DNA from: Negaprion brevirostris
Taxonomy: Eukaryota
Length of the DNA stretch: 64,000 bases
Direction of reading: 5' to 3'
Assembly: GCA_030324005.1 (NCBI GenBank)
Contig: JARDVH010000084.1
Coordinates: forward strand, 92,031,849 to 92,095,848
Shown here: piece by piece, positions 1,741 through 62,950 of the stretch
Position numbering within the stretch: the first letter of the stretch is position 1
Layout: every line of letters starts with the position of its first letter
Notes under the pieces: generated by a model
Databases searched by the model: none
What the model was told of the DNA's origin: nothing
What the model saw: only the letters and a program-made list of their open reading frames with translations
Made by a program: the position numbers and the translations under genes

Positions 1741-1779
1741 TCGCTACGTTTTTTTCTTGCTTCTCTCTACCTCTATTAA
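1741..1779 (-). CDS. Cassette B-slot exon with ambiguous boundaries: either 39 nt VNRGREKQEKNVA, or EVERSKKKT-stop from a second acceptor at 1772
   Basis: Two acceptors (ctcttcag| and ttaatag|) lie 133 and 140 nt downstream of the 1913-1939 exon, the usual A-B spacing in this locus. Confidence 0.4.
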
Positions 1780-1912
1780 CTGAAGAGATTGATCGAAATT
1801 GTTCTTCCATGTTTCTACTTAATCGCGTTGTAAAACCTTACAAAGACAAGGGACACATTTGGAACCATACATTTCAGAAGCTGTTGGAGTGAAGATATTT
1901 TGAACACTTTAC

Positions 1913-1939
1913 CTAAATCCTTCTGGAGCAGTTTCGCTT
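1913..1939 (-). CDS. Microexon, cassette type A (27 nt, phase 1-1): EAKLLQKDL
   Basis: ttttttaataaacag|AAGCGAAACTGCTCCAGAAGGATTTAG|gtaaag; the peptide resembles EQRLQQKDR at 38045. Confidence 0.75.
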   Translation of the reverse strand, partial: KRNCSRRI

Positions 1940-3184
1940 CTGTTTATTAAAAAAAAACAATTTCGTTGTTGAAATACAGACTAACTTATTCCAAATAAAT
2001 TTTCTCCAGATTATGGTACGTATATCCGTGCCCAGGAATTTGAGTCCCATTCATCAATGTAGCATCATGTACTTATTCTTATGGCATTGGTATACAAAGT
2101 CCTATATAACAATGTTGCATCGAATTGAATTAAAAAAAGAATTGTAATATTGAAAACAAAAGTAACTAATACATATCACAGAAATGGCTTTTCTTTTCGA
2201 CACGATCGGTCCCCATATGCCCATAGTGACGACGTAAGGGTCTGAACGTATCTGTTTGGAGAAAATAAAGCAAGCAGCTCAAGTCAGCTAAAGACTCCAG
2301 GCCAACATGTATCACATAAACTAATTCCAAGTTTCCAGTTCACCTGTAACTCGGCTGCAAGTGTAACATCTCCATGCGCAGACCTCACACAGCAGACACG
2401 CCTATTGAGTGTACCAAGCTTTCACATTTGCGGAGTCCTCAGTAATTCTCCTTTATTTCTCAATTTCCATTGATTATCAGTTGATTGTGGCTCTGCATTC
2501 CTTCCGTAAGAACTTATGTGTTTACCACTATTTTCCCGAAATTTCTCTTGCTTCGGCATTCAGCTCCTTCCAATCAATTATCGGATAAGGAGCCCATTTT
2601 CCGAGAATATATTGTCATAATCCAGAACCATGTAGAAATATAAATGTGTCAATGGAAAGGACCTTGCGGAGGAAATTTCAGATATTAGCTGGAATCAATG
2701 AACTCCAAAGGAAGCAAAGTAACCTTGCGGAATGATGATACTTTCCGCTGCTAAACATGTCGGTATTGGCAACATAAATACAAATGTAAAATGTTACATT
2801 TCTTTTCCCTGAAGTAACACTTACATATGAAATTAAATTTCTCCATATTTGCAGTTGATGGATTAGGCAAACAACGAATTTTCTTGCGAATTGGATGATT
2901 TTGCAAAGAACAACTAAACAAAGCAATAGAGAGACCGATGACTGTACCACATTTAGGGTTTTACTCATGTCAAGCGTGAAATACCTCAATACTCATGAAG
3001 GAAATCATAACAATAATTTAACAGTTACACATTATAAAATATGTTTCATTGAAAAATAATGGGAATTCAGAGGGTAACTCTTAATTTTGACGATGTGATA
3101 AAATGTGAAAACATCAAGTCAGCTAATGGTGAATGGACGCCATTGGTAGTAAATAGATGGTGGTAATGTGGACACATTCTTTAC

Positions 3185-3211
3185 CACAAATATTGAAATA
3201 GCGTACTTTCC
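3185..3211 (-). CDS. Possible extra microexon (27 nt, phase 1-1): GKVRYFNIC
   Basis: cctcctgcag|GGAAAG...TTTGTG|gtaaag, 106 nt after the 3318-3353 exon; the peptide is not coiled-coil-like. Confidence 0.35.
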
Positions 3212-3317
3212 CTGCAGGAGGTTTTATGTGTTGTCAATGTAGAGGAAGATCACTAATTAAAATTCAATGTGTTAATTGCTACAATATTATTTTCGTAAAA
3301 TACTATGTTATTCCTAC

Positions 3318-3353
3318 CAATAGTTTGCAGTGCTCTTCTTAATTGAGTCGTTT
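3318..3353 (-). CDS. Microexon, 36-nt cassette type (phase 1-1): ETTQLRRALQTI
   Basis: ttttctaatttccag|AAACGACTCAATTAAGAAGAGCACTGCAAACTATTG|gtagga; Leu at positions 5 and 9, as in the other 36-nt exons. Confidence 0.75.
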
Positions 3354-4669: not shown

Positions 4670-4992
4670 ACTGTAGAAGAAGCCATTCGACCCGTCGAGT
4701 CCCACCATCTCTCTGACAGCTTACCATGCCTACCCCCTTTCCCTGCCCTATGCCGTAACTCCACTCATTTCCCATGGCTAAGTGACCTAACCTACACATC
4801 TCGGTGAATGAAGGGACAATTTAGCATAGCCAATTCAGCTAAAGTGCACATTGTTAAAAGAGGGAAACTCGAGAACTTGTAGGAGACCCAAACAGACACA
4901 ATGAGAATGTGCAGACGGTCAACCAGGGCCGGAATTGATCTCTAGTCCTTGGAGTTTTCAGGCAACAGCGCTAACCGCTATTACAACGTGCC
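4670..4992 (-). mobile_element. tRNA-derived SINE, HE1/V-SINE-like, decayed
   Basis: Reverse complement shows an A-box/B-box head (GGCACG...GCGGTTAGCGCTG...GATCAATTCC), a V-domain-like core and a CR1-type tail. Confidence 0.75.
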
Positions 4993-5446
4993 AAGTATCT
5001 AAATGTTGATTGCGTTTCATTTCGAATGTAAGTGACAGTAAGAAAACAAAAACTAATTCAAAGAAAACCATGGCGTGCCTTTATAAACGCAAGGTCAATC
5101 CTAGAAAGATTCAATAGTGTTTTGTTGTTTGTGATATAGGTACAGTTTCTAATGTTCACACGAAGTGCAAGTACAGAAATAAAGTGTAAGCTGAACGATG
5201 AATGCCAGCAAAATGCAAAACTGATGACAAGTTTGCTGTAATTTATGGTAAAAGGCCACAAATTTGGAAGATACGTTATGTCACGAGATGACGCCGGCTC
5301 AGATTATCATGGGTTAACGTGCTGCTTAACCTGACCAGGATAGATAGACTCTTTTCAAAGTGCCTGAACATTAAATTCCAGGAACTCAATTAGCTATCCA
5401 AACAGACTACTTTTAGTATTTTGAACATTTAACTTATATATGTGAA

Positions 5447-7982: not shown

Positions 7983-8009
7983 CTGTTTCTGTTCCTTCCA
8001 TCTGTTCTT
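7983..8009 (-). CDS. Probable microexon, B-like (27 nt, phase 1-1): EEQMEGTET
   Basis: tttttctcattgaag|AAGAACAGATGGAAGGAACAGAAACAG|gtgaac. Confidence 0.5.
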
Positions 8010-21500: not shown

Positions 21501-21907
21501 TGATTGGAAAATTGCAAGTCGTAGAATGCAGCAGTAACAAATTCTGCAAAATGAGGAAACTCTGCTTCCCACACAGCATGTTGCGACCAAGGCCAAGAGC
21601 CACTGGATAGCCAACAAAAAAATCAACGTTGTTAGATTCATTGTTATAAAATTATCATAANNNNNNNNNNNNNNNNNNNNNNNNNNNNNNNNNNNNNNNN
21701 NNNNNNNNNNNNNNNNNNNNNNNNNNNNNNNNNNNNNNNNNNNNNNNNNNNNNNNNNNNNGTCCAATAACTACTTGAAAAACACATCCATCCTTGTGACG
21801 CACTGCCTTCCTCTACCGATTGGAAAGTAAAAAGACTCAGTACCCAATTGGATGATGCTTGACTGTGGGCAAACAACCTTTATCCATGCCCCTCCCCTAC
21901 CTCCTCA

Positions 21908-21941
<34 letters not shown>

Positions 21942-22100
21942 CATACACTCACTCACTCTCACGCACACTCACTCACTCCCACGCACACTGACTCTCACAC
22001 ACACACCCATAAAAACACACACAAATGCACTGTCTCACGCACACATACACATACACCATCACACACACACATTCACACACACACATTCACACACACACAC
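21908..22100. repeat. (CA)n / (CACT)n microsatellite
   Basis: Directly visible. Confidence 0.95.
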
Positions 22101-22454
22101 AATTTTCAATCTTACTATATCTGGTAAAGATAAATATTCAAAGAAAATCATACAATATCATGCGAGCCACTGTGAGACAAGGAGATCTAATACCTTAGGC
22201 CTCTACAGTGAGAAACCATTCAGCCTTTTGAGGAAATGTCAAGATTTTATTTTATCAATTTGTTTTAGAGATGATGCTGAGTTTAGGAGGGCTCCTTTGA
22301 ATAAAAGATTTTGCCCTAGATTTAAGATATTTGAATCGAACAGAAAGGTGAGATTTTGCATTGCTATCCTAACTGAAACAGAAGGTAAACATTAAAGAAG
22401 TAATAGAACACCCACTTAACAAAGTAACGCCGAACTCTTTTATCAGACGGGCAC

Positions 22455-22675: not shown

Positions 22676-24390
22676 CTACAATTGAATGGCACAGATGCGT
22701 GTCAATACGTGCAATAGCGAGCGGCTAGTTCTTCCCTATTTACAACGTAGCACTTTTTTTTCTTGTTTTGTCCTGTATATGCAATTATGCCTGAGAAAAT
22801 CGTTTCCTCAAGGAAACAAAGAAAAATAATTAAGGAAGCCTTCGTCAAAAGTCATAGACTGACGGCAGCTATGTCTCATGGAATGTTTACGAGGAGCATC
22901 ACGAAACGTTTTCCTATTTCACAAGTAGCATGGGCCTTGAATTCTTTGACTGTGTAACAATATGACATTTTCTTTTTGAGGTTATCTTTAGAAAACTGCG
23001 GGTTTAGATTTTAACACTCAAGTCTCTACAGCGTTCTGCATTTTCACGTTCATAGAGATTCGGTTTTATTGTCTCCCCTTATTTTCCAATTGCACGCTGA
23101 GAAATGTTACCCTATCTAATTCTTGAACATCACATGGACGTACAAAAGTATGTCTCACGTTGGTAGCTTAACATGAATAAATCCACAATGGCAAATCAAT
23201 TAAATAAACGTGAAGGCGATGTACTGAACAGGACATCTAATGGTGTGCATTCACGTACTTAAAGGGCTTTTTTTTCCTTGTTCCTATTCAACTTAAATTT
23301 CATTCTCATCAGCTGGAGTTTCAAATGGTTGTGTTTAAGAGGACGAGTGCAAGTCAAATAATAACAGCAATCTCGCCTCACCATTACGCGCCGGAATACT
23401 TGGACGTTGCTCCAGTCAAGAACAGAAATCGTTTTGTGTCCTCATTATCAAAGACACGCAGAACATTTCACATCAGTAGAATTAATTGAAAAAAAAACTT
23501 TTCTAAACAATAAAGTAGGTGCCTTGATTACTCGCTATTGCATATCACTCCAGTTTACTTTATTTTTGTTAAGGCATAGGTAAATAAACAAAAGTGCGTA
23601 ATCACTGGGTATTTTCATATTTTGCATTACGAGCAACAGAATGTCCCATCTTAAATGTTTAAGGAACGTCAATAGCGGTTGTTGTTTTCTTTCTTTCCAG
23701 AACTTCTGTCAATGTAGAAGTCTATCAATTGAACGCCAGTGGTTAAAAATACAACTATTCGGGGAATAGGTTTGGCAGGGTAAATATTTGGAGTTACGGG
23801 AGTAAGACCTAGTTGAGAGTGTTGTCTGAGCAGGCTCGATATGCTGAATGGCCTCTTTCTGAATTGCAGGAATTCTTTGATTCCACGACCGGCACCGGCC
23901 ACACGAAGGAACGCGTTGTGCACCTGAAATTGCGTGAGGTACCCATCAGCCGTGTTTACCCATCAGCAGATGTTGTTGATGGCAAGTTAGTTCACATATG
24001 TACTCAATGGGCTCGTGTCCATTCCTCGTAAAGGGAGCACTTGTAATGATGCGTTCTAATGCTTTGAAATCTTCTCCAAGGCGCTCTGCCGCCACGACCA
24101 CCACCCCTACCCCGCTTCCCCACGCCACCCCCGCATCATCTCACCCTCCGCTACAATGGTAAAATCTGTATTGAGCGAGTACGAATGACAAAGAGCTAAG
24201 CATGGGAAACAATAACCTCGCATCCAGTGGCATCAAATTCATCTAATATCAGACAGTATAAACTGATTGGCATTAATTAAGAGAACGTTACATTTCAAAT
24301 TCAGACACTTCTGCTTACGGAAGGAAGTTCAACACAGAAGCTATTTAGCAACTAAATCAGCTGATCTAATTTAGAGCTGAACGCTGACAC

Positions 24391-27027: not shown

Positions 27028-27054
27028 CTTCTCTTTTGCTATTCTGATCATGAT
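27028..27054 (-). CDS. Microexon, type B (27 nt, phase 1-1): NHDQNSKRE
   Basis: catgttttgtag|ATCATGATCAGAATAGCAAAAGAGAAG|gtgagt; 125-nt intron from the 27180 exon. Confidence 0.75.
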
Positions 27055-27179: not shown

Positions 27180-27206
27180 TTTTTTGTTTCAGCTGTTGAT
27201 TCAGTT
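27180..27206 (-). CDS. Microexon, type A (27 nt, phase 1-1): ELNQQLKQK
   Basis: ttttattataacag|AACTGAATCAACAGCTGAAACAAAAAA|gtgagc. Confidence 0.75.
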
Positions 27207-30842: not shown

Positions 30843-30869
30843 CGTCGTGTATCTTGCGTTCGGTCTTCT
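30843..30869 (-). CDS. Microexon, type B (27 nt, phase 1-1): EKTERKIHD
   Basis: ttttttgttttacag|AGAAGACCGAACGCAAGATACACGACG|gtgcgt; 136-nt intron from the 31006 exon. Confidence 0.75.
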
Positions 30870-31005: not shown

Positions 31006-31035
31006 CATCCTCTTTGAGCTTTCGAAGATGCTCTG
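31006..31035 (-). CDS. Microexon, type A (30 or 27 nt via a NAGNAG acceptor): (A)EHLRKLKED
   Basis: ggctttcag|CAG|AGCATCTTCGAAAGCTCAAAGAGGATG|gtaagc. Confidence 0.75.
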
Positions 31036-33907: not shown

Positions 33908-33943
33908 CAGTATTTTTGAGTTCTTTAGACAAATTTAGAAGGT
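33908..33943 (-). CDS. Microexon, 36-nt type (phase 1-1): DLLNLSKELKNT
   Basis: ttattattttcag|ACCTTCTAAATTTGTCTAAAGAACTCAAAAATACTG|gtgagg; paralogous to 39853-39888 with mostly synonymous differences. Confidence 0.88.
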
Positions 33944-35979
33944 CTGAAAATAATAACAAGGTTGTGCTCAATTCGAAGAATTTGTATTAAATGACGCAAG
34001 ACAGGGAATGTTAACTTTGGAATTTTGTATAAGGAATGGGACCCATTCTTGATCTGCATTTTCGATGGTTTGCAACTTCTTTGCTCACTGAGCGAATTAA
34101 TTCAAAGATCAGATCTAAACCATAATAAGGTGGTTTTGCAAAACTTTAAGGGTATATATATATTTTTTTAAGTAAATGACGATAAACAAAGTTGCATGTT
34201 AGGGCCCGACTGGAAGTACTGAAATTGTGCAAACGTAAATAAGACCGACTACGAATACAAAATACGCTTCAGCATCATATTGACTATTTTATTTTCTAAC
34301 CACGTGGGAACTCATTAGTTTGAACGCTAGCTTTCAATTAGGGACAGTAGAAGGAAGCCATATTGAATGTATTAAATTATCCAAGATTGCATACAATTAA
34401 TTAAGAAAAAAAAGATTGAAAGCATACATTTGGCTTTACAATAAACTTTGATTTTCAGTCCAATAATGCTGCATTCGAAAACCTTTTGTCTTATCCCAAT
34501 AGTGTAATAATGTAGTTGGCTATTATTAATTTCAGCTGATCATTGCTGCATGCAGGAGTTGTACAATTTCAGGACAGATTATCACATACGGACCTGGGAC
34601 AGTTCCATCGGATTTTTGCCTGCCTCCAAAGTATAGGCCGTTTTTTCAAAGTCTTCTCCTTTACTTTATTGACAGTGAAGTAATGTATCTCTTGGTATAG
34701 GTTTCCAGTCTGGTAACAAGAAACCATTCGGAACAAAGATAGCAAATGACTTTCAAATGACATATAAATATTACTCTGCATGCAGGAGTTGAAAATCAGT
34801 ATTGCGACGGCAGCAAATTATGGAGATGGAAACTATTTATAGTTGCAAAAGTGTTAATGTTGTTTAACCAATCAGGGGTTTTCACTTTCCAAATTAATTC
34901 ACAGAACAACTCAATAGCTTGGGCCTAATCATGAGAAAACGAGCACGTGGGTTGATTCATATCAGTGAATTCACATCCTCAGTCGGGCATTCATATTTAG
35001 AATCCGTGCATCAGTAACCATGATTGCCAACAAGAAGTAATAAGCTACTTTCCATGGACTGTAATGTGGCTCTTTCAACGTACGAAACAATTGCAGGGAA
35101 AATAATTTGCGCCACAATACTCAAGACTTCGAGTGGTATATTTTGACACATTTTTTTGGTGCACCCACTTCATAGAGGTTAATTAAAAGAGGAACAGATC
35201 GATGTTCTCAGCTGATCTCGCATGCATCTGAATGCTATGAATAATATTTTTATGACAAGTAAACCAGTTAAAGTGTTCACTGTCTCTCTGAAGTTGAATT
35301 CGTTTGTTCTCAACGATCAGTTGAATAACATTTTGCAGAAATTTACATTTATTGCTAAACAGACACTTGTTCTAATTAATAGGGGTGAAAATCCAGCTTT
35401 TGGTGGGTCAGTAGGACAGTAATCATTTTTTCGATACCGATCTTTTTTTTGAATCAAGATGCATGCATGACGCCTAAGAAGAAAATATATGAAAGGTTTT
35501 ACCAGTCTTGTTTTCAAGTGTCGTTTTTTCTACATATAAAAGACAAAATTGTTTCAACGTGCCATCCGATCAATATATCTATTATCAAAAAAAAAACACA
35601 GACAGTATATTTGAGACGAGCTTCGGTCTTTTTTTTCCCCCCTGAATATCTGATCATTGCCCGTTTACAAAACTATCAGTTTCTTTGCACGTCAGTGAAA
35701 GAACACCGCACCATCCCCACTCCACACCATTTCTCCCACCCCCCCCCCACTACCCCCCACTTCCCTTGCCCACCCCTCCAAAAAACCCACACAGAAATTC
35801 CAAAGAAATGTTTTATTGCCCACTTTGGAAAACAATTAACGTCTAAATACCAGCTTTTGACTGAAGTGCACGCAAATTACATTTAAAGAAACTAATGTAT
35901 GAAGAAAATCGCAACACAATTGGAAAAAGGAAGAGGGGAAACAGTAAATATTTGCATATCTGGATCTCTCACTTATTCA

Positions 35980-37891: not shown

Positions 37892-37918
37892 CGTCGATTC
37901 TCTTGTGCTCTTCAAGCT
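37892..37918 (-). CDS. Microexon, type B (27 nt, phase 1-1): ELEEHKRID
   Basis: tatgtatacatag|AGCTTGAAGAGCACAAGAGAATCGACG|gtcagt; 126-nt intron from the 38045 exon. Confidence 0.78.
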
Positions 37919-38044: not shown

Positions 38045-38071
38045 CCCTGTCTTTCTGCTGAAGCCGCTGTT
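38045..38071 (-). CDS. Microexon, type A (27 nt, phase 1-1): EQRLQQKDR
   Basis: tatccataacag|AACAGCGGCTTCAGCAGAAAGACAGGG|gtaagc. Confidence 0.8.
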
Positions 38072-39852: not shown

Positions 39853-39888
39853 CGGTTTCTCTAAGTTCTTTAGATAGGTTTAGCAGGT
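39853..39888 (-). CDS. Microexon, 36-nt type (phase 1-1): DLLNLSKELRET
   Basis: tcttcaatttcag|ACCTGCTAAACCTATCTAAAGAACTTAGAGAAACCG|gtgagg; the other two frames contain stops. Confidence 0.88.
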
Positions 39889-40924: not shown

Positions 40925-41428
40925 GAAAATAAATGTCAGTAATTTGTTGGCCTGCATTACACTGCATGAAATTTCTGTGAAAATGTCCTATCTGACACGC
41001 TCCAAAGGCTGTTCGGATACTAAGAAGGAACATTTTATCTTGGCCAATGCATCCAACTGGCACATCTTTCTGACTGTGGGAAGAAACTGGAACATCCAGA
41101 GGAAATAAACTCAGACATTGTGACAACGAGCAAATTCCACACAGGCAATGACCCAAGCCTGGAATTGAAACTCCCTCATGGCACTGTCAGGCAGCAGTGT
41201 TATGCACGCACCGTACCGTGCCGCTCCAGAATTTGGCATGGCCAATGCACCTAACCAGATTGTCTTTATGATTTTGGCAGGGAACTGGAGCACCTGGGGT
41301 GAACCCATGCAGGCATGGGGTGAGTAGGCAAACACTGTACAGGTGGTGATTCAAGAAGGGAATGGAACCCGGGCCCCTGACACTTTGGGGCACCAGTGCT
41401 AACCACTGTGCCACAGCGGCGCCCCGAC
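40925..41428 (-). mobile_element. Two tandem tRNA-derived V-SINE-like SINEs
   Basis: Two heads on the minus strand (near 41425 GGGGCGCCGCTGTGGCACAGTGGTTAGCAC, and near 41224), each followed by a V core. Confidence 0.85.
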
Positions 41429-41461
41429 AATGCAACTAAAGTAGTCGGGTTGTGGAACTAG

Positions 41462-41489
41462 CTTCATTAGTTTGCGTTTTTCTTTAATT
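41462..41489 (-). pseudogene. Decayed or stop-containing type B exon: ELKKNAN*
   Basis: aatctgtag|AATTAAAGAAAAACGCAAACTAATGAAG|ctagtt, 157 nt after the type A exon; 28 nt rather than 27, and CT where GT is expected. Confidence 0.45.
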
Positions 41490-41646
41490 CTACAGATTCG
41501 ATAATTCAGTTAGGGTGGATCATGCAATCTCCGAACAGCACATTTTATTCTTGGTACACACAAACTCTTATCCTACAAGTGCAACAACTGAAAAAAAAAA
41601 ACACATGGGAAATATTAAAAAAGAGAACATGGTGTTGAGCACAGAC

Positions 41647-41673
41647 CTGGTGTTTGTAATTGTAGTCGTTTTT
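41647..41673 (-). CDS. Microexon, type A (27 nt, phase 1-1): EKRLQLQTP
   Basis: caattgttttag|AAAAACGACTACAATTACAAACACCAG|gtctgt. Confidence 0.7.
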
Positions 41674-41756
41674 CTAAAACAATTGAATATCACGAAAATT
41701 ATCAGGAGACAAGAACAACCCTGTACAATGTTGAGAAAACAAGAATAAAATTAGGC

Positions 41757-42350
41757 TATAAGACCGTAAGACATAAGAGCAGAAATAGGCCATTGGGCCA
41801 GTTGAGTCTGCTCCACCACTCAATCATTGCTATATTTTTCTCATCCCATTCTCCTTCCTTTTCTGCATAACCCTAAATCCCCTTATTAATTAAGACCCTA
41901 ACTATCTCTGTCATAAAGACACTCAATGACCGGATCCTCACAGCCTTCTGCTGTTCCTCAGATTCACCACTCTCTGGCTGAAGAAATTCCTCATCTCTGT
42001 TTTAAAGGGTTATCCCTTTAGCTTGAGGTTGTGCCTTCTGGTTCTAGCATTCCCTATAAGTGGAAATATCCTTTTCATGTCGATTCTATCCTGCTCATAT
42101 AATATTCCATAAGTTGCAATACGATCGCCCTTCATCCTTCCAAACTCTAATGAGTACAGACTCAGAATCCTCAAACTTCCTCACGCCAATAGCTCTTCGT
42201 TCCAGGGATCATTCCTTTGAACCTCCTTTGGACCCTTTCCAAGACCAGCTCATCCTTCCTTGGATATGGGCCCCAAACTACTCACAATACTCCAAACAAT
42301 GTCTGGCCAGAGCATTAGACAGCCTCGGAAGTATAACCTTGTTCTAATAT
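41757..42350 (-). mobile_element. CR1 LINE 3' end with (taagac)n tail
   Basis: Tail ataagaccgtaagacataagagcagaaataggccatt, followed by the reverse-complement RT C-terminus. Confidence 0.85.
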
Positions 42351-42783
42351 TCCAGTTGATGCTCTCAATGTCATCAAATTAAAAAGAAAATGAAAACGTT
42401 TAAAGTATGAATTAAATAGCTTATTGGCCATCAAATGAAGTATTTTATTATCCTACAACCTCGTACGAAATGACTACAGTCTACGCTTAACCGAATGAAT
42501 TTGGCTGCGTTATCTGAAAAAAAAAACTGCTTATGGAAGTTAAGTGATAATTGTTCAGCGATTTGACCGTTCTTTGAAGTATAGACTGATCTTCGGATCT
42601 TTTGGAAATTGACAACGTTATATTTATTTTTCCTTTTGATCCTTTGGATTGTCAAAATATGTTTGATTCGCATAAGCATCAGCGTAGTGCAGCGCAGAAC
42701 AAAACAGGCGTATATTAACTAAAATGTATGGCTTTTGTTTGGCTGTCAATTCTTTGAACACTGACCTAAATCCTATTCCTTAC

Positions 42784-42819
42784 CGCACAGTTCCAGACTC
42801 TCAGTCAGTTTTTCTATTT
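42784..42819 (-). CDS. Microexon, 36-nt type (phase 1-1): EIEKLTESLELC
   Basis: ctttttctttccag|AAATAGAAAAACTGACTGAGAGTCTGGAACTGTGCG|gtaagg; both other frames are closed. Confidence 0.85.
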
Positions 42820-45031
42820 CTGGAAAGAAAAAGTGCATAATCGAAAACAATTTGGATTATTTTGTGACGTCTCCAATCATTGGCTTGGTAAATTGCTCTT
42901 CAGTGATAATGCCTGCCTTCAATATTATAATTTACGAAATGCTGAGGGCACGATTCTTCTACGTGACAGAGTTACAACATAATGTGAGGAATAACATAAA
43001 GGCAAAATAATGTGAACTTTAAAATGCTATTACTTCTATTCGCAAAACAAAACTAAAAAAAAAAACTTTTGTACTTGGTTACTGCATTTGTTATTTCAGA
43101 ATTAGTTTGGCAAGAATCTGCAATTAGATTGGCCACTACATAACGCTTTTCAACATTTTTGACTCAACACTATGCTTTAATTGAATTCATAAAGATGCTT
43201 TACAGAGTCATGTTTTAAGCACTAAATATTTTTATGCATCGAGGTTTGATGCACACTCTGGTCAATATTTTCATACTTTTTGTTTACACATTTGTTACAT
43301 GTAGTCGTAATGTTAAATGTCCGTATTAGGGGTACAGCTTGAAAAAAAAAGTGATATTCTGTCCTTTGTTTTGAATTAAAGCAATTCATTTTAAGAACCA
43401 CAAGAGATCACCTAAAGTCCTCGCTATAAAGATTCTAATTGATTAGGATCCTACAACAATTATGATCGTCTTAAACGTTGCCTCTAAATTATTTGGCCAA
43501 GATGGCATACTTCCCGATCCTGAATAAGTGGGTCAAGGAGATGTTCTGAAAATGTTTTGCCTCAGTACAAACAATGTAAAGCAAGAAACAAAACTGAATC
43601 ACAGGGTGGCCCACAAAGTAGTTAAAAACTTAGAGCTGCTGCCAGTGGACAATGGGAAACGGCATCAACCGAAAATAGTCTCCCACGATAAATCAATTAG
43701 AAACTGATCATGGTCAGTTTGGCCAATCACAGACTTATCACGTACCCAAGGTCCCATTAAGAATTAATCTAATGTAGATCAATCTGAATGCAATTGACAT
43801 AACTGTTAATTCTGTGTTTTGCATATTTTAATGGGATTATAAGCAAGTGCTTCCACTGAAAACTTCCACCTCAAGTTTGAAAATTATATTCTTTTGTCGT
43901 GTTTTCTGTCCAAAGGGTAGCAGATATTACTGGGAGATAACAGAGGCTGAGTGGTAATCCAAGTTCAAAGCTGCACCGAGAAGCATGAGTTAACCCGTCC
44001 AGCCCTTTCTTTGTTCAGTGTAGATTTGTAACTTACTCTTCTTAAAGTAAATGTCTTAAGTAAATTGGCCAAACCGTTTCCTGATGGCTAAATGATCATT
44101 GACTAAAATGAAGATGATTAGAATTTATGTTCAATGTATGTTCAAAACTGTGAGCCAAGACAACTGAGATTTAACGATTCTATGATGAATCAGCCAGGCG
44201 AACAGGATAATTGGGGAAGGGAAACCCAATGGTTGCAGCTTCATTGTTACCCTGTCAGCGATTACTGACAGTGCTGACAATGCATCAAACAAAACATCTT
44301 CCTTCTCTCCAGTGCGAGAGGCTTGAAAAATTGTCTCGCAAAAATCTGCAAATACTGCTTTAAGATAAAGTAATTATGCTCGTCAGAAGCTGGGAGAAGT
44401 GTCAAGCATTCAAAAGGCAGTTCTTCCGTTTGCTAATTGAGGATGTTACCATCCTTGGAGTGTTAAGGACAATGTGAAAAAAAAAGAGTATTTAGAGGGA
44501 TAAAAAGAGAAGAGGAGGGTGTGGATGCTGTAAGGAGGCCAACGGTTCGGGGCGGAGGGATGAGGGGGGTCGGTGGGAGGATGGGTGAGAGGACGCGGGT
44601 GGGAGAGGGGGAAGATTATTCCTGATTTTCTTCCAGAGGTGCATCACTATTTGNNNNNNNNNNNNNNNNNNNNNNNNNNNNNNNNNNNNNNNNNNNNNNN
44701 NNNNNNNNNNNNNNNNNNNNNNNNNNNNNNNNNNNNNNNNNNNNNNNNNNNNNCACAGTCATTCGCAACTCGAACACTGACAGCTATGCAAAAGTACTGT
44801 GTTTCTTGTCAGGTAGTGATTCAATTGAAATTCGGTTACTGGAGTGACACGAAATGATTCTAACCTCCAGATGGGAGGCTTTACCTGTCCCGTTCCATCA
44901 CCTGAACATTCTGATATCACTGATTAGCTAGTAATTCCGCGGACGTACACTCTGAATTACGGAGCAACCTTTTGATTTTAGTCGAGGTTGTATGTGGCTA
45001 GTTCCAGGAAAAGATAGTGATTGTAACTTCC

Positions 45032-49203: not shown

Positions 49204-49230
49204 CTAAAGTACTTTCTTTTAATTTCCTTG
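49204..49230 (-). CDS. Microexon, type A (27 nt, phase 1-1): ARKLKESTL
   Basis: cttattctattttgaag|CAAGGAAATTAAAAGAAAGTACTTTAG|gtaaac; ends TTAG|gtaaa like the 1913 exon. Confidence 0.68.
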
Positions 49231-51104: not shown

Positions 51105-51485
51105 ACTATCACTGTGTGCTGTGCAGATACAGGGACCCGGGTCGGATCTCCGACTTGGGTCAGTGTATGTGGGAGTTTGCACATTCTTCCCGCGCTTGCG
51201 TGGGTTTCCCTCCTGGTGCTCCGGTTTCCTCCCACGGCCCAAAAACTTGCTTTTAGGCTGCTTGATGTTAGTGAATTGTCCCTAAATTGGACGTCCCTTA
51301 ATCTGGCGCACATACAATTCTCTAAATATGCACCCCTTTATTATGGAGTCTAAGAGATGTCTACAAAATTTGCTGGTAGAAGAAAAATTGGAATGGGCAC
51401 TCACTGAGTGCTAAAATGGGCGGCGCGGTCTTGTAGGGCAGAAGTGCCTTTTTCCTGTGCTGTGTTGTACTTTGTTCTTTGTTAC
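51105..51485 (+). mobile_element. HE1-like SINE with CR1-type tail
   Basis: B-box region, V core and tail gcctttttcctgtgctgtgttgtactttgttctttg. Confidence 0.75.
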
Positions 51486-52479: not shown

Positions 52480-54340
52480 ACCAAAATTGACAGGGAACAC
52501 TAGGCGACGAGAGAGGGACGAACTTAAAGATATCAGTGTTACCAGATAATCTTTTTGGTGAAATTGAAAGGATTGAATACCAACAGCTGCCAATGCCGGA
52601 TAATTTGCATGTGAGAGTTCTGAAGGAAGCGACACTACAAGCTTTGGCTGTCACCTTCCAAAATCTATCAATTGTGAAAAAATTCTTGGCGTTATGTAGC
52701 ACCAATTATAACTCTACATGTTGCAAATAAAATCTAACTACAGGGTAGGTTTGGGTGAAAGGAAAATTATCAGGGAGAAGGAGGTTCTGAGGAACACTCG
52801 TGGGTTGGACTGTGTCTGTTTCAATGCGAGGAGTGTGACGGGTAAAACGGATGANNNNNNNNNNNNNNNNNNNNNNNNNNNNNNNNNNNNNNNNNNNNNN
52901 NNNNNNNNNNNNNNNNNNNNNNNNNNNNNNNNNNNNNNNNNNNNNNNNNNNNNNTGCGGCGGCGCGGGCTCGTTGGGCCGAAGGGCCTGTTTCCCGTGCT
53001 GTGTTGTTCTTTGTTTTTTATTCTTTGTAAAAGACAGGGTATTATAGACCGGTCGGCCTTACCCCAGTCGTGGCAAAAATGATGGAGAACATTATAAAGG
53101 ATCAAAGGCATTATTGGAAAACAATGGCAGCATCACTGTAATCAGCATGGATTTACAACAGCGAAATTATGCTTGGCAAATCTTCTGGGATTCTTCAAGG
53201 ATGGACCTAATGGAGCTCAGGAGGCTTTCAAAAAGATCCCACATGATAAATTGTCATGACAAGTTAAGCGCGTGGGATTGGGCGTAGTGTATTTAGATGG
53301 ATAGACAATCGGTTGCAAACAGAGGGAAAACAACGGGCGAGGATTAAGAAATATTGCTTACGTGTGGTAGGCGGTCTGAAGTGGCATATGGCAGTGATGG
53401 GTGCTAAGCCACCAGCTCTTCACCATGCGTAATGATAATTTAGTTAAGATAAATACTTGTGATATTGAGATATTGACAGATGACACAATGTTGGGTGGAG
53501 AGTGAGTGGCAGGAATGATGCAAATATGTTTCGGTGTAAATTGTACAACTTTAATGAGTGGGAATTATGTGTCAGATGCAGTGCAATTATGCATAAAGGT
53601 AGGGTTATTCACTTTCATAATAATAAGAAGGCAGATCATTATTTCCTTGGCTTTCAATTGAGAGAGGGTAGTATGTTACGAGACCTGGTTGTCATTGTTG
53701 AAAGAAAGCTTGCAGTTGCAGGAGATGGTGAATAAGGGAAATTGTGTGTTCTTCTTCATAGCAAGTGGCTTCGAGTATCGTAACGAAACTATTGCTCTAC
53801 AGGCTTTCATGATACCACACTTGGAACATTTTGTTTCCCTTATCCAATAAATGACTCAAACGCTATTATAGGAATGAGGCGACGGTTAACCAGATTGATT
53901 CCTGGGATGGCAGGACTGTTGCAGGAGGCACGACTGAGTGAGTTAATATACTATACGCTCGGGATTCGATGCATGAGAAGCAATCTCACTAAAACCCATC
54001 TCATTCTAGGAGACTTATATTGGACAGATGCAGGAAGCATGTTTCGGATGGACAAGGAGCCCAAAACCAGGCGGCGAATTTAAGGACATGGGATAAACCA
54101 TTTAGCATTGACACGACGATTATTATTTTTTCACCCACCGAATAAAGAGCCTGTGGAGTTCTTTATCACGAGAATTGGCTGGGTTCAAAACTTTTTTTAA
54201 CGAACAATAACTTACACCTCTTAGGGCTGTAGGTTTAGAAGGATATTGGGAAACGGGAACAATCTACAAGTTGAACGATCAGCCGTCATCATCATGAATG
54301 GCGCAGTAGGCTCACAAAACTTCTGCTCCAATGTAAATAG
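52480..54340 (+). mobile_element. Decayed CR1 RT region with a younger CR1 nested across the gap (~52740-53030)
   Basis: PDNLHVRVLKE; CVCFNARSVTGKTD (ORF2 start of the nested copy); RRRLTRLIPGMAGL; 3' UTR. Confidence 0.8.
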
Positions 54341-55003: not shown

Positions 55004-55033
55004 CTTGCGAACCCTTTCTAAGTTTTTGAATTT
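55004..55033 (-). CDS. Microexon, shortened 36-type (30 nt, phase 1-1): EIQKLRKGSQ
   Basis: tatatatttcag|AAATTCAAAAACTTAGAAAGGGTTCGCAAG|gtaaac; EIQKL matches EIEKL at 42784-42819. Confidence 0.72.
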
Positions 55034-56798
55034 CTGAAATATATATAGAAAAGAAATGCCATTTTGGTTATCGATCTACTTTTAAGTTCAGCATTATTGG
55101 GTGAATGACAGCGGACTTTCGATCAGATTGTCGTACTGATACAGTACACGGAAACTGGCACCGTTCCATCTGAAAGGCGAACAAGTTTGCACTTTCATGA
55201 GATAGCGTAGGATAAATTTCAAAGAACAAAGAACTACACAGCACGGGAAACAGGCCCTTCGGCCCAACGAGCCCGCGCCGCCATATTAAGAATGCATTTT
55301 TCCTACACCTCCCTCGNNNNNNNNNNNNNNNNNNNNNNNNNNNNNNNNNNNNNNNNNNNNNNNNNNNNNNNNNNNNNNATTGAAAAATAAAATGATTGAA
55401 ATAGTAACCTTGCTGACTCAATGTGAACTTTGTGTTCTGCCACTGATTCTGCTTGACATATTTTCATTTTCCACTAGTCTTGTTTGGCGGTCCGATGTCT
55501 CATGCATTTGAAGATGGAGCAATTTTGAAAACGTTAACACATGTCCAATAAACCTGTATCAGTCTGCCATAGTGACCTGTCCCTGTGACGAAAGATTTTG
55601 GTGAATATAGCTTGGAAGTCAACGCGTCTTCCATAGCGTCATAGATTAAATTATTAGATTATGGAACTATGACCACTGAACCCGATTAAATGGTCAGTCA
55701 TTAAAGCCACTAGTAGTGCTAAATTTATTCAGTCATTGAACAGATAATGTTTGAACTTCTCTCGCATAGATTATCGTGGAAGGATCATTCTTGAACGTAT
55801 TCAAGCCTGATAAGGATTATTTCAATTCCATGGGTATTGCTAAACATGGTAAGAAGGGAACAATCTGGAGTTCTGCAGAAAGTAAAATACAACCGTACTG
55901 CATTGTTACTTGGGATTCGTGGGGAAAGTTCTCTTACGCTGGATTGTTTAAATCTCCAGTTAAACGTGTACAGCGTATCCACATCGCATTTGAACAACTC
56001 AGCGCTATACTTTCGATTTCATCCCGATGTCACTTCCTAAAATATTACTTCATAAGATTCCAAGTTCACCTTCGAAGGAAAGCCTGTAATCTTAGTTTAA
56101 CTTTAGTTTTGGAAGGTGTGAAGAGCTTTATCGCGATTTAAATGATGCAGTCCTTTAATATCCTGAATAAATTTCATTATATTTTTCTCCATTACAGGAA
56201 CGTAATTTTGCCAATGCATAATTTGCATAAAGAATTCGCAAATCTAAAATAAGCTAATTTCACAAAACTTTTTTTAAAATGACAGAAATGACCATGAATT
56301 CTTCTGACTCTGCGAAATGTCCACAATGTCTCCTCAGTGTTTAATTGCTATGAAGTAAAATGGAACATTCTTTAGTCTACTCTCTGATGAAAACACAAAC
56401 GTTTTCGGGTAAGTAGCATTTACGTATTTAATAAACGCCTTATTTCTAATCCAGTTTTCAACAGGAATGAGTGAACAAATTTAGGTCTTAATCTAAACAA
56501 AAACGTCATATACTAATAAAGAAGAAGCGTTTGACTTCATACATAATCGTTGTACAAATGTTATGGCCTCTTCCAGATGCTATGGATTTATTTTTTTACC
56601 CAGGCGTGGGACATGGACTTCGCTGCGCAGCCAGCACTCTTTGCCATCCCTGGTTGTCCCTGGATGATAGTTGCGAGTCAATCACATTGATATGGCTCTG
56701 GAGAAACATATAGGCCAGATCAAGTTTGGGGGAAGATTTCCGTCCCTAAACGACATGAACAATAAACGGAATACGGAATTTTTCAGTTCTTTCGTTAC

Positions 56799-56825
56799 CT
56801 GCATCTTTTATGTCCCTTTCGTCTT
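56799..56825 (-). CDS. Microexon, type B (27 nt, phase 1-1): EDERDIKDA
   Basis: atttttcctatag|AAGACGAAAGGGACATAAAAGATGCAG|gtaacg. Confidence 0.75.
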
Positions 56826-58912: not shown

Positions 58913-59956
58913 NNNNNNNNNNNNNNNNNNNNNNNNNNNNNNNNNNNNNNNNNNNNNNNNNNNNNNNNNNNNNNNNNNNNNNNNNNNNNNNNNNNNNNNN
59001 NNNNNNNNNNNNTTGTATCACCTAAATCACGAGGAACAAGCTCAGAGCTTCACTTGCTTCTCCAAAACCACCCATATAATTTACACGCTTAATCATGGTA
59101 TCCTAGTTCCCCAATTTTACAGTTCGCCAAATTTCCGACCATCCTATCTGCCAGCTACGTGTCGGGAGGTTATGGCTTGGAGGTATTTTTCTAAGCTAAT
59201 TACCCAGAAACCCAAAGAAATTCTCTGGGGACTTGGGCCAGAAAACTACCATTGACGCTTTTGAAATGAAAATTCAGATAATACATCTGGAATTAAAACT
59301 TCAATGGAAACAATTAAACTTTGAAAACGTACTTCAAAGTTCAGTGAGTACTTTCAGAGGAATAGATTTGCCACTCTTGCAAGATCTGCCATACTTGTGA
59401 CTCCATAGCAAGAGTAACAAATTGAGTTCCTGATTTCTTATTGCAGCAACATCAATACTCGGCTTCGCTGTCAGGTATCCATTTTTAAAATTATTTTTAG
59501 ATTTCAGGGTTACTCGCCCTTTCTGAAATATTCTAGCAAATCTCTCAGTTCAAGGACAATTACGCATGGGCACAACCATGAATGCCTGCACGTCGTGGAT
59601 GATTTCAGAAGGCGCCTACGCATTGTGTGCACCTAATCCATCTGCTCACCAATGTATCTGCTACATTCAGTTAACTCGCACACACGCAGAGTCACCCACC
59701 TTTCAATCGACCATGCATCAACTGCAACAATTCACCTGTGTTCTAACCGACCCAGTCACGCAGCAACGCCTTCTGACGAACGTCATGCTTGAACACCCAG
59801 CTAGTCTTATATCCACATATCCACTCAAGTCCCTCATACCTAGCTATCTGACGAATTATGCTGTTATCGACGAACGGACAAAACCAACAGCTCCAGATGG
59901 CACACCTTAATTATGATACTATCACAGTCGCAAAAACACCTAATCACATATCCTCT

Positions 59957-61436
59957 TAGAACAGAGAACATAGAACACTACAGCACAAACAGGCCCTTCG
60001 GCCCACAATTTGTGCCGATCATAACCACACCTACGAGGCTGATCTATAACTCTCAATCCCATTGAATCCCATTCAATCATCCAGAATTCTCTTCAAAGAC
60101 CCCAGTGAGTTTGCCTCTACCACCACCGACGGCAGCCGATTCCACTCACTCACTACCCTCTGAGTGAAGAACTTACCCCTGACATCCCCTCTGTACCTGC
60201 TCCCAGCACCTTAAACCTGTGTCCTCTCCTGACGACCATTTCAGCCCTGGAAATAGCCTCCCACAATCCACCCTATCTATACGTCTCAACATCTTATAAG
60301 CCTCTATCCGGTCGCCTCTCAACTTTCGTCTCTCCAGGGAGGAGAGACCTAACTCCCTCAACCTATCCTCATAAGGCATGCCTCCCAATCCAGGCAACCC
60401 CCTTGCAAATCTCCTCTGCACCCTCTCAATAGCTTCCACATCCTTCTTGTAGTGAGGTGACCAGAATTGCGCACAGTACTCCAAGTGGGGTCTGACAAGG
60501 GTCTTATAAGGTTACAGCATTACGCCCCGACTCCGAAACTCAATCCCTCGATTAATGAAGGCTAGTACACCCTACGGCTTCTTGACCACATCCTCCACCC
60601 GCGAGGCTGATTTCAGAGTCCTGTGGACCCGGACCCCAAGGTCCTTCTGCACCTCACCACTGCTAAAAGTACTGCCCTTGATATTTTACTCCTTAATCCC
60701 ACTGGCCCTGCCAAAATTAGCCACTACACATTTAGCCGCGGTGAAGTCCATCTGTCACTACTCCGCCCAGTCTTGCATCCTATCTATGTCTCGCTGCAAC
60801 TTCAAGCGTCCCTCCAGAATATCCACAACATCACCAACCTTCGTGTGGTCGGCAAAATTACTAACCCATCCCTCCAGTTCCTCATCCAGGTCATTTATGA
60901 AAATGAAAAACAGCAAGGGTCCTAGAACAGATCATTGGGGCACTCCACTGATGACTGACCTCCATGCAGAAAAAAGGCCCATCCACAACCACTCTCTGCC
61001 TTCTGTGGGCAAGACAGTTCTGGATCCACAAGGCAACAGCCCCTTCGATCCCATGCCCTCTCACTTTTTCAAGAAGTCTTGCATGGAGGACCTTATCAAA
61101 CGCCGTGCTGAATTCCATGTAAACCACATTCACCACTCTTCCTTCGTCAATGTGTTTCGTCACATTTTCAAAAAACTCAACTAGGCTTGTAAGGCACGAC
61201 CTGCCCTTGACAAAGCCGTGCCGACTATTTCTGATCATACTAAACTTCTCTAAATGTTCATAAATTCTGTCCCTCAGTATCCTATCCATCAACGTACCAA
61301 TCCCTGAGGTCAGACTCACTGGTCGGTAATTTCCCGGGCTATCCCTGTTTCCGTTCTTGAAAATAGGAACCACATCCGCAATCCTCCAAACCTCTGGAAC
61401 CTCTCCCGTCACCATTGACGACACAAAGATCATCGC
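59957..61436 (-). mobile_element. Relatively young 5'-truncated CR1 (HER1-like) LINE
   Basis: TGEVPEVWRIADVVPIFKNG..PGNYRPVSLTS, HGFVKGRSCLTSL, AFDKVLH, EYCAQFWSPHYKKDVEAIERVQRRF; tail of agaac-type repeats; few disruptions. Confidence 0.95.
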
Positions 61437-61439
61437 GTG

Positions 61440-62450
61440 AATAATCTTCCAAAATAATCTTCTCTAGAGAAGAATACAACTACTGAACTACCTCGCCATC
61501 TGCATAATTTGTCATTGAATGTTATGTTGAGACATAACATTGCCTACCTTCCTCAGCTACCAAAATCACTACTCAGCATCCCATCCTACTCATTCCATTC
61601 ATATATCCACTTATCTAACTTGCTAACTAAGTTAAGCACTCATGCACGTTCTCACTTATCCACCTCATTCATACATCTAGTCAGCTATCTCACCCTCCTC
61701 TACATCACATACAAGGAACCAATTTCGACAACTGCATAAAAATACATTCACAAAGCACATTCAGCGCAACTAGCGACCGAACAACGTGAATGTCATCGGG
61801 TTTCGCAGCTTCCCACCTACACACATTCAGATGATTACCATACAAATAAACCAACAGGGCCACTAGTCAACTAATAACCTGATGTATTTATCTGAATGCA
61901 ACCCCATACTCACTTGACTGCCTTTATTCAACACGCTATTATATTCGATTTAGACGTCCAGCACACATTACCGGTACAGTCATTCAATGAGATGCACAAT
62001 ACACCCATTTCCCCATTTGCCTATCTTATCTACCAATGCAATTTTTTCAGACACAGCATATCCACACACCACCTGTTTCAATCAACAATAATATGTGTAT
62101 TTTCTCAGTTAAGTAGTCAATCACATAATTCACACGCTCATCTAATGACTCGCCCATACACACAGGTTTCACGTGACCATCTTCCCACTTTTCAACTTAA
62201 ATAGCCAATTACATACCTCACTCTGCTGCATACCTCCCCGAGACTCAAATTAACCTTCTAATACCTACACTGTTCACGTACGTAAAATGCACCTTCCTGA
62301 CCTCCAACTTGCCGAAACAAGTTCCCATTTACCCAACACTGCCTCCTGTCCAACCAACTCGGTCACGCATGAAACTTCATCAGTGATCGTAGCCGCTTAC
62401 TGGGCAATTTCAAAGTCTATATCGGCACACATTTTCTACTTACTCAATAA
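61440..62450. other. G-depleted (C/A/T-rich) low-complexity tract, continuing at ~59600-59950
   Basis: Visible strand skew with recurring cacact/catcc/attca words. Confidence 0.6.
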
Positions 62451-62914
62451 TTCCAGAGTAGGCATTCAAACCATGAGCCATTTAAAGTTATTTGAATAGA
62501 TAAACTATTGCCGCAAATGAAGTTGTGGGGCGTGGAGTGGGGGCGGGGTGCAGTGGCTGTACTCTCCATCCAAACCCAATGGGCTGAAAGAACAGATGCT
62601 AAATTTCTTTCAGTCAGGACCAACACATGATGAAAGGAATTGCAGGGGCCTTCGTTCGTTAAATCTATGTGGGCAATGAGAATTCACCATGCGTTTACAC
62701 TGAACTGACTGTATTGGCCACCCTCTGCTGTGTAGTAGATCAGCTGCTTCAAGGAATGTGCTATTTTTTCAGAGAAATTGATCACAATAATCTCACTGGA
62801 CAGATATGTAGGTTTATGAGTGATATTTGCTAAGACAGATTTTGAACATTTTTCTTTAATTCAGATCTCACTCTAATATGGATGCATCACTGTAGGATGT
62901 TTTCTTTTTCCCAC

Positions 62915-62950
62915 CTGACTTTTTCAGTGCATTTTTCAATTCTTCGATTC
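62915..62950 (-). CDS. Microexon, 36-nt type (phase 1-1): (G)IEELKNALKKS
   Basis: ttttttgatgtttag|GAATCGAAGAATTGAAAAATGCACTGAAAAAGTCAG|gtggga; I2/L5/L9 pattern. Confidence 0.8.

Follow-up and report, generated by a model that had tools for sequence, protein, structure and literature searches.

The window analysed here, a 64,000-nt stretch of Negaprion brevirostris contig JARDVH010000084.1 (positions 92,031,849 to 92,095,848), carries 18 microexons on its minus strand:

62915..62950, minus strand, phase-1 microexon of 36 nt
56799..56825, minus strand, phase-1 microexon of 27 nt
55004..55033, minus strand, phase-1 microexon of 30 nt
49204..49230, minus strand, phase-1 microexon of 27 nt
42784..42819, minus strand, phase-1 microexon of 36 nt
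41647..41673, minus strand, phase-1 microexon of 27 nt with a weaker donor
39853..39888, minus strand, phase-1 microexon of 36 nt, duplicate of 33908-33943 (pS 0.72, pN 0.12)
38045..38071, minus strand, microexon of 27 nt, followed by a 126-nt intron
37892..37918, minus strand, microexon of 27 nt
35503..35529, minus strand, microexon of 27 nt (model score 28.8), newly added
33908..33943, minus strand, microexon of 36 nt
31006..31035, minus strand, microexon of 30 nt with a NAGNAG acceptor (27-nt form from 31032), followed by a 136-nt intron
30843..30869, minus strand, microexon of 27 nt
27180..27206, minus strand, microexon of 27 nt, followed by a 125-nt intron
27028..27054, minus strand, microexon of 27 nt
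7983..8009, minus strand, microexon of 27 nt (model score 22.1), newly added
3318..3353, minus strand, microexon of 36 nt
1913..1939, minus strand, microexon of 27 nt

Together these exons amount to 537 nt, or 0.84% of the window, in line with a preliminary description that had put the coding fraction below 1%. All 16 exons listed there were recovered on the minus strand at the same coordinates and with AG/GT ends; the exons at 35503-35529 and 7983-8009 are additional. Stops occur in 9/18 exons in phase 0 and 7/18 in phase 2 but in 0/18 in phase 1, which bears out the claim that phase 1 is the sole frame open throughout; all lengths are multiples of 3, also as described. Serial joining of the 18 exons created no stop at any junction, again as described, and the same was true of skip junctions (0/153). 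The described order of 36 nt, 27 nt, short intron, and 27 nt is present, but the strict unit of 12+9+9 residues did not hold, as units of 36+27 nt (21 aa, three heptads) and 36+27+27+27 nt (39 aa) also recur. Two exons measure 30 nt, one of them with the alternative acceptor. The RT-PCR product between the 39853-39888 and 30843-30869 exons, previously predicted at ~180 nt, would be ~207-210 nt once the 35503-35529 exon is counted. Two 24-nt candidates (24422-24445 and 24659-24682) were dropped, as they sit in a repeat also present at +656.9k, and those at 61463, 42513, 32086, 17059, and 8548, with scores of 10-13, were excluded as background. A second organism is ~96% alike over 24300-43000; among the differences listed, none falls in two of the exons, where ~2 would be expected, and this comparison was given no weight.

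Candidates were scored with a model of splice sites and residues trained only on 237 exons outside the gene to which the window belongs. At a score of at least 16, the window contained 18 candidates on the minus strand and none on the plus strand, while 100 dinucleotide shuffles of it yielded a mean of 0.37 and a maximum of two; the strand and shuffle comparison that had been proposed as part of a refutation test was thereby carried out. In the out-of-sample flanks, the counts at a score of at least 18 were 81 versus 0 and 47 versus 2, and over the whole fetched stretch at a score of at least 16, they were 370 versus 10. Most of these 370 candidates were 27 nt (234) or 36 nt (90) long, and three were 21 nt long. 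The only point in favor of reading the segments as chance splice-like matches or a repeat artefact is the shortness of each exon; that reading has a negligible probability and is refuted by the strand and shuffle controls in the window, together with the colinear match to a catshark protein presented below. The 18 in-frame segments are thus very likely exons of a real gene.

The microexon array spans at least 1.88 Mb and resolves into five tandem paralogues on one strand (g-1, g0, g1, g2, and g3), so the hidden microexon gene of the preliminary description was upheld and is much larger than first described. The window lies in the 3' interior, within the 3' third, of g1, a gene of ~528 kb (~530 kb) with ~100 microexons; in full, g1 comprises 101 microexons (955 aa) and one 39-codon start exon. 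Features outside the window are given in extended window coordinates, with contig position equal to 92031848 plus the coordinate:

511011-511142, minus strand, ATG start exon of g1
162.7k-281.1k, minus strand, array of 46 copies of a 27-nt exon in g1
-6519, -15782, -16606, minus strand, last confident exons of g1
546175-546415, decayed SPRY exon of g0
-409.9k to -410.4k, decayed SPRY exon of g2
-836249 to -835729, intact phase-1 B30.2/SPRY exon of g3, the last paralogue

Inspection beyond position 64000 for 5' exons, as earlier suggested, thus led to a start exon. Three paralogues, g1 included, have their own ATG exon, and these three were the only genome matches to the ATG exons. In each (3/3), an acceptor lies 14 nt before the ATG and phase 1 is open. 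In g2 and g3, there is a conserved upstream donor with the phase-1 frame closed, as would suit a first exon that is non-coding. Neither g0 nor g-1 yielded a start exon, and a weak search for start-exon homologues found none. Searching the genome with the catshark g1-like protein in its spliced form gave no matches, as expected for microexons.

The SPRY exon of g3 (PF00622, E 4e-9) is the only intact one found among the five copies, and g3 is the most 3' copy. In g2, the exon has decayed: it contains stops, and its alignment has 30 gap columns and 347/492 nt identical, yet 57 paired microexons of this copy are intact. For g1, neither genome searches nor a scan of the whole stretch turned up a SPRY exon; of its 57.8-kb tail, 8.2 kb is N. 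A SPRY-like match at -30.3k on the correct strand was not significant (iE 1.4-2.3), and searches behind g1, g0, and g2 revealed no new or alternative terminal exon. The same contig carries many other SPRY genes. As SPRY exons have decayed in two upstream copies and none was found for g1, with the microexons intact, the window gene is likely either a headless rod or one that splices onto the shared last SPRY.

The second option, in which upstream paralogues are read through from alternative promoters and splice to the one intact SPRY at the 3' end, is in our judgment rather unlikely. It would explain why upstream copies lost their own SPRY, as transcripts would use the last one, much like a variable/constant cluster; on this model, a ~1.35-Mb transcript encoding a rod of >2,500 residues would begin at g1. 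The arrangement of all copies on one strand with all exons in phase 1, the acceptor and open frame of the start exons, the 3' position of the sole intact SPRY found, the decay of the g2 SPRY beside intact microexons, and the lack of a detected terminal exon behind g1, g0, and g2 are consistent with it. Against it, g2 and g3 each retain an upstream donor of non-coding type, sufficient by itself to account for the start-exon acceptor; in catshark RefSeq, the model resembling g1 and the one resembling g3 are distinct, short proteins; Scyliorhinus torazame and Narcine models terminate without a SPRY; and no protein joining two paralogues was seen among the matches listed (searches limited by length and ranking). 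There is, by the same token, only a minor chance that the locus is a 2-Mb variable/constant cluster with several promoters, hundreds of interchangeable phase-1 microexons, and one shared SPRY head. If so, it would generate combinatorial molecular rulers, ranging from a few hundred residues to several thousand, and would be a vertebrate counterpart of schistosome micro-exon genes.

Constraint on the exons was assessed between paralogues. The dN/dS ratio was 0.24-0.46 in the 8 computable of 10 pairs; choosing the pairs for similar peptides biases this ratio downward, and dS is near saturation. Between the in-window duplicates (39853-39888 and 33908-33943), change was mostly synonymous. In the 46-copy array, 14 copies are broken and dN/dS is 1.16, indicating that part of g1 is weakly constrained. 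This array, the lack of a detected SPRY, and the weak heptad register in the window would fit a once functional g1 that is now decaying, its exons seeming intact owing to slow change of the shark genome. We consider this quite improbable: decay is visible here in the g2 SPRY, yet splice sites and reading frame are preserved in 101 g1 exons at a dS of 1.4-2.4 from other paralogues (with the caveat that the scan selects intact exons), the duplicates differ mostly at synonymous sites, and a catshark model matches g1.

Relatives of the cluster were present in other cartilaginous fishes. The Scyliorhinus canicula protein XP_038671249.1 aligned with g3 over 68 colinear exons, with 55 junctions flush, 415/634 residues identical, and 62% identity in the SPRY. 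A second catshark model, XP_038671246.1 (LOC119975528), was closest to g1 (chain score 411 versus 300 for g3; 101/164 identical) and spans only the 357k-296k part of it. The closest relatives are RefSeq automatic models: in S. canicula, the above two, the first named 'zinc-binding protein A33-like', and XP_038672306.1; in S. torazame, XP_072329362.1; in Narcine, XP_069775418-428 ('golgin A6-like') and XP_069775384-390; in Hemiscyllium, XP_060706632.1; in Cetorhinus, XP_078422387.1; in Rhincodon, XP_048472904.1; in Leucoraja, XP_055510696.1; and in Callorhinchus, XP_042191566-8. These models are homologous to the cluster: exons of the cluster can be matched one after another to the catshark and Narcine 'golgin-like' coil peptides, and the SPRY domains fall in one group. 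However, they are fragments of 101-945 aa with misleading names, and none spans the window's exons or reveals the multi-paralogue cluster. The protein search proposed for what was then an unrecognised protein thus leads to fragments that RefSeq already lists under automatic names. Searches of the open-access literature turned up no paper on the family; for shark skin, one 'A33-like' accession is recorded (PMC10707392).

The preliminary description had suggested a modular coiled-coil stalk or tail analogous to the BG and butyrophilin tails and had noted no Ig or transmembrane (TM) exon in the window. None was found over 2.04 Mb (11% N) either, and no exon for a RING, a B-box, or a signal peptide was detected within the genes or upstream of them; Ig was sought by tblastn with Ig-bearing B30.2 proteins, and our own hydropathy scan found no conserved signal exon upstream of the start exons. 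TM-like candidates numbered one on the minus and one on the plus strand, the former not beside a start exon. Among nine family proteins, the maximum 19-residue hydropathy was at most 1.48, and neither these nor protein P0005 contained a RING or B-box; TRIM_CC (PF25600) gave no match for P0005 at E <= 1. The sole RING-like match is located 79 kb beyond the stop of g3. The absence of detectable Ig, TM, RING, B-box, and signal exons indicates that the family is not a member of the BG, butyrophilin, or TRIM groups, and, with three paralogues starting at their own ATG exon, a membrane-receptor stalk or tail was not supported. A BG/butyrophilin-like membrane or secreted protein, in which the exons for a signal, Ig, TM, or the gene's own SPRY are concealed by gaps or too diverged to recognise, is highly improbable. 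The N fraction, the faint match at -30.3k, one Leucoraja model with a hydrophobic start, and long coil plus PRY-SPRY proteins with N-termini that appear signal-like by eye point towards it; the homology and hydropathy results point away, as does the SPRY phylogeny. In two trees, unrooted and based on a small sample, from which we claim no origin or order of events, the chondrichthyan SPRY domains of the family cluster on a branch of their own, distinct from BTN and from the long coil proteins with signal-like N-termini (100/100 support each).

The coiled coil proposed earlier was supported as a helical, coil-type rod, but the joined window block alone is not significantly periodic (best 3.36; 100/1000 shuffles as high, P ~0.10). 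Positions 2, 5, and 9 of the window's five 36-nt exons are hydrophobic in 14/15 cases, and cluster-wide (n = 94) in 80%, 90%, and 77%, respectively. The coil of the catshark g3 orthologue has a periodicity of 3.51 (0/300 shuffles as high), and its AlphaFold2 model, which represents this orthologue and not g1, consists of helices over residues 2-761 and a beta-sandwich (mean pLDDT 68.5, pTM 0.31). The predicted structure is one of long helices interrupted by short linkers, in which the 36-nt exons would lay down the a/d heptad core and 36+27 nt would make three heptads.

On balance, we favor, with slightly better than even confidence, the reading that g1 is one of five tandem paralogues and that splicing likely joins its ~100 phase-1 microexons to encode a segmented coiled-coil rod of ~1,000 residues, probably cytosolic, from which the SPRY head kept in g3 has likely been lost. 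The exon anatomy, paralogy, start exons, intact g3 SPRY, and decayed g2 and g0 SPRY exons were observed directly. Judging from the orthologous RefSeq models, the exons would be spliced in order, and cassette skipping would give isoforms differing by 8-23 residues with no frameshift; the nine Narcine isoforms have internal gaps of 8, 8, 11, 12, and 23 aa. The rods may oligomerise via the coil, and in SPRY-bearing members, a putative ligand-binding head could be held at a splice-tunable distance. A headless g1 might have a structural, tethering role or might pair with headed members and so modulate them, perhaps resembling the soluble BG 'zipper' tail, which acts without a receptor part.

The locus represents a multi-megabase cartilaginous-fish gene family, with members in sharks, rays, and (by SPRY) a chimaera, that annotation has split into misnamed fragments. 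Genes of ~100 microexons each stand at the far end of vertebrate gene architecture, and they offer a test case for how microexons are recognised and how exons arise and disappear. The repeated loss of upstream SPRY exons beside intact microexons poses a sharp question, headless rods or a shared head.

Several known systems resemble the family in part. TRIM-B30.2 proteins (TRIM21, TRIM39-like, teleost 'A33') also combine a cytosolic coiled coil with PRY-SPRY, but the shark family has no detected RING, B-box, or TRIM_CC match, and its coil is microexon-coded and many times longer. Chordate long coil plus PRY-SPRY proteins (725-2,602 aa; ESM Atlas clusters, e.g., 'DDB_G0290503-like') share the very long coil, the PRY-SPRY end, and the lack of RING or Ig, whereas several have signal-like N-termini and their SPRY forms a separate 100/99 group beside Ig-bearing B30.2 proteins; they were compared by protein sequence. 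For schistosome micro-exon genes, the sections of PMC4350168 considered here describe coding mostly in very small symmetrical exons, in-frame isoform variation, signal peptides, and a reported restriction to platyhelminths. The coding sequence of g1 likewise lies mostly in tiny symmetric exons, but the sequences are unrelated and no signal peptide was found here, so the likeness to the genes described there is one of gene design alone. Chicken BG genes, in the passages of PMC4046983 that concern them, have signal, IgV, and TM exons, then many small in-frame exons of 7(8) residues encoding an alternatively spliced heptad coiled coil, then a 3' UTR exon; they form a tandem multigene cluster and include a soluble tail-only form, the zipper protein. 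The coil from many small in-frame exons, the tandem cluster, and, judging from the RefSeq isoforms, alternative splicing of the small exons are shared with BG as portrayed there, but the shark exons encode 9 and 12 residues (21-nt exons are 3/370), the genes span hundreds of kb, no Ig or TM was found, and a SPRY belongs to the family. Butyrophilins (BTN3A1, BTN2A1) end in a B30.2 that comes after a heptad region, as in g3, whose best PDB sequence match is the BTN3A1 B30.2 (E 2e-14); in contrast, no IgV, IgC, or TM was found in the shark family, its SPRY does not group with BTN, and its genes have dozens to ~100 coil exons versus a few. The BG/butyrophilin analogy drawn earlier therefore pointed in the right direction, in that g3 ends in a phase-1 B30.2/SPRY exon, but failed on Ig, TM, and signal exons. 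The family provides a link between a probably soluble B30.2 protein and the tails that BG and butyrophilins build from heptad exons.

All 16 minus-strand segments that the preliminary description had read as microexons were located, each with AG/GT ends, and two further exons (35503-35529 and 7983-8009) bring the set in the window to 18, totalling 537 nt (five of 36 nt, two of 30 nt, and eleven of 27 nt). The claim that phase 1 is the sole frame open throughout holds for this enlarged set (phase 1 open in 18 of 18; stops in phase 0, 9, and in phase 2, 7), as does the absence of stops at junctions in the series; none of the 153 exon-skipping junctions contains a stop either. Candidates were scored for splice sites, length, and residue usage by a model whose training set was 237 exons lying outside g1, the gene that contains the window. 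In the control proposed in that description, comparison with the plus strand and with shuffled sequence, the window yielded 18 minus-strand and no plus-strand candidates at a score of at least 16, and 100 shuffled window sequences yielded a mean of 0.37 (maximum two). The window segments are almost certainly real exons.

SINE/LINE-like repeats are scattered through the window introns, along with an AC microsatellite (29116-29274, 63385-63543, 4924-4997, 41352-41425, 51419-51483, 52958-53022, 55220-55282, and 21888-22121). Two copies of a 121-nt repeat, 98% alike and present also at +656.9k, lie at 24393-24750, each with a strong 24-nt pseudo-exon (scores 10.3 and 11.9) that could become exonised in frame. 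On the plus strand, 232 codons without a stop begin at 15512, possibly derived from a mobile element.

The window occupies C84:92031849-92095848. With its flanks of 1.0 and 0.98 Mb, the stretch analysed comprised 2.044 Mb, of which 230 kb (11%) was N; coordinates outside the window continue its numbering (contig position = 92031848 + coordinate). The microexon array spans +1,044k, the edge of the stretch, where it is still open, to -831k. Candidates at a score of at least 16 numbered 370 on the minus strand versus 10 on the plus strand (234 of 27 nt, 90 of 36 nt). Training data for the array-wide model came from the inner 1.26 Mb; in the flanks unseen in training, minus- versus plus-strand counts at a score of at least 18 were 81 versus 0 and 47 versus 2. 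Of 38 short introns, 21 separate two 27-nt exons. Based on start exons, exon-poor gaps, and repeated exon series, we distinguished five tandem paralogues:

Paralogues of the cluster, with minus-strand exons at a score of at least 16 (plus-strand candidates in brackets)
g-1, minus strand, 48 exons (1)
g0, minus strand, 59 exons (1)
g1, 511k to -16.6k, minus strand, contains the window, 101 exons (3)
g2, minus strand, 62 exons (4)
g3, minus strand, 99 exons (1)

Three homologous 132-nt start exons, at 511142, -74632, and -447418, have no other matches genome-wide. In each, the ATG stands in good context 14 nt after an acceptor, and a Y-x-N-I motif and a phase-1 donor follow. The first of the three is the ATG exon of g1, found where the preliminary description had suggested looking for 5' exons, past position 64000. 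No start exon for g0 or g-1 was found in the analysed stretch, and their mutual boundary is therefore inferred. Genes g2 and g3 run colinearly, and where their introns can be aligned, identity is mostly 65-70%. Upstream of the ATG exon, each keeps a strong donor with a closed phase-1 frame, consistent with a non-coding first exon.

The 3' end of g3 is a phase-1 SPRY (B30.2) exon at -835729 (L168:3751-4271, minus strand), which exceeds the curated cut-off of PF00622 (E 4e-9) and has the B30.2 domains of BTN3A1 and TRIM21 as best PDB sequence matches (E about 2e-14 to 3e-13). The tail of g2 holds a copy disrupted by stops and frameshifts (-409.9k to -410.4k; 347 of 492 nt identical, 30 gap columns) and that of g0 a far older relic (546175-546415, E 0.0011). 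In the g1 tail (57.8 kb, 8.2 kb N), the only SPRY-like match was insignificant (-30.3k, iE 1.4-2.3). In genome searches, the interval from 91.2 to 93.46 Mb gave no intact family SPRY. Transcripts of g1 might read through to the last SPRY of the cluster and so share its head, which we consider unlikely. A second intact family SPRY, at C84:93461001-93461516 on the minus strand, as is the cluster, corresponds to a second, shorter family member; it is 66% identical and orthologous to catshark XP_038672306.1 and may represent a further upstream cluster member. Many further SPRY exons occur at C84:85-101 Mb and C121:6-11 Mb (99 matches genome-wide); those on C121 rank next below the family by score and may be further members.

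By tblastn, the N-terminal parts of nine BTN-like, TRIM, and other B30.2 proteins matched no Ig, RING, or B-box exon in the genes; the sole RING-like match belongs to a neighbour gene that lies 79 kb beyond the stop of g3 (L176, about -915.0k to -915.6k, minus strand). A scan for transmembrane exons gave one minus- versus one plus-strand candidate, and the sequence upstream of the start exons yielded no conserved signal-peptide exon. All these searches covered the stretch with its 11% N. We hold it to be very unlikely that g1 has hidden membrane, secretion, or SPRY exons. Among neighbouring plus-strand ORFs, L184:6297-6899 resembles coiled-coil domain-containing protein 105 (PDB 8snb, E 5.7e-6), a possible synteny anchor, and L180:5939-6646 (236 codons, without Pfam or PDB match) may be a neighbour gene's first exon.

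The g3 SPRY is 62% identical to that of S. canicula XP_038671249.1 (945 aa), on whose coil 68 g3 microexons chained colinearly, 55 of them flush with the preceding one (415 of 634 residues identical). An independent gene model therefore links exons of this type in the order predicted; gene models of this kind generally rest on RNA-seq. For XP_038671246.1, the best paralogue fit was g1 (411 versus 300 for g3), over 357k-296k only, outside the window. Other relatives occur in S. torazame, Hemiscyllium, Cetorhinus, Rhincodon, Leucoraja, and Callorhinchus, the last four by SPRY kinship. In two unrooted SPRY trees (43 and 32 rows), a long branch (100/100) separates family members from BTN and TRIM, from teleost 'A33', and from a set of unnamed proteins in which a long coil is joined to PRY-SPRY; the unnamed representative P0082 is placed inside the family.

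The 36-nt exons (94 across the cluster) encode hydrophobic residues at positions 2, 5, and 9 in 80, 90, and 77%, which is an a-d-a heptad pattern; three heptads equal 12+9 residues, and 36-nt exons recur at 39-residue spacing. The coiled coil proposed earlier is supported by this pattern and by the catshark coil (periodicity 3.51, 0 of 300 shuffles), but not by the window block alone (peak 3.36, equalled by 100 of 1000 shuffles). An AlphaFold2 model of the catshark g3 orthologue from an 11-row alignment showed, over residues 2-761, long helices with short linkers, and in addition a beta-sandwich (mean pLDDT 68.5, pTM 0.31).

Between paralogues, dN/dS was 0.24-0.46 (eight of 10 pairs computable; g2/g3 0.46 over 57 exon pairs), values biased low because pairs were picked by similarity. 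Within the window, the duplicate pair 39888/33943 gave pS 0.72 and pN 0.12; two further pairs were uninformative (0.79 and saturated). At 162.7k-281.1k (L011-L021, L042-L043), a single 27-nt exon of g1 is present in 46 copies, the majority having a NAGNAG acceptor, and the array looks like ongoing exon birth and death. With 14 copies broken and a dN/dS of 1.16 over 28 consecutive pairs, this array counts against constraint and in favour of g1 losing function, a reading we nevertheless hold to be quite unlikely.

We lean towards the product of g1 being a segmented coiled-coil rod in the cytosol, about 1,000 residues long and headless, with length tuned by in-frame skipping. Exon skipping would vary the rod in frame; among nine Narcine isoforms, the internal differences are in-frame blocks of 8, 8, 11, 12, and 23 residues, and two vary at their ends. 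The rod would serve as a tether or pairing partner of SPRY-bearing members, its oligomerisation, location, and partners being inferred. The precedent is a soluble BG-tail zipper protein, reported as a regulator of actin-myosin interaction (PMC4046983).

Our search of the openly accessible literature listed no description of the family; the accessible part of one paper covers chondrichthyan butyrophilins with Ig domains and does not treat it (PMC12841164). The suggested analogy to BG and butyrophilin holds in that the microexons work like their heptad-exon tails, and the gene design is shared with schistosome MEGs (PMC4350168), whereas membership tests placed the family outside BG, BTN, TRIM, and MEG. 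It also differs from the unnamed coil + PRY-SPRY proteins (P0086, P0096, P0105, P0115, P0125-P0128, P0140, and P0158; 725-2,602 aa), which form their own SPRY group, include several members with signal-like N-termini, and are possibly a convergent secreted family. The present locus contributes the five-paralogue cluster, its start exons, and the decay of the upstream SPRY exons.
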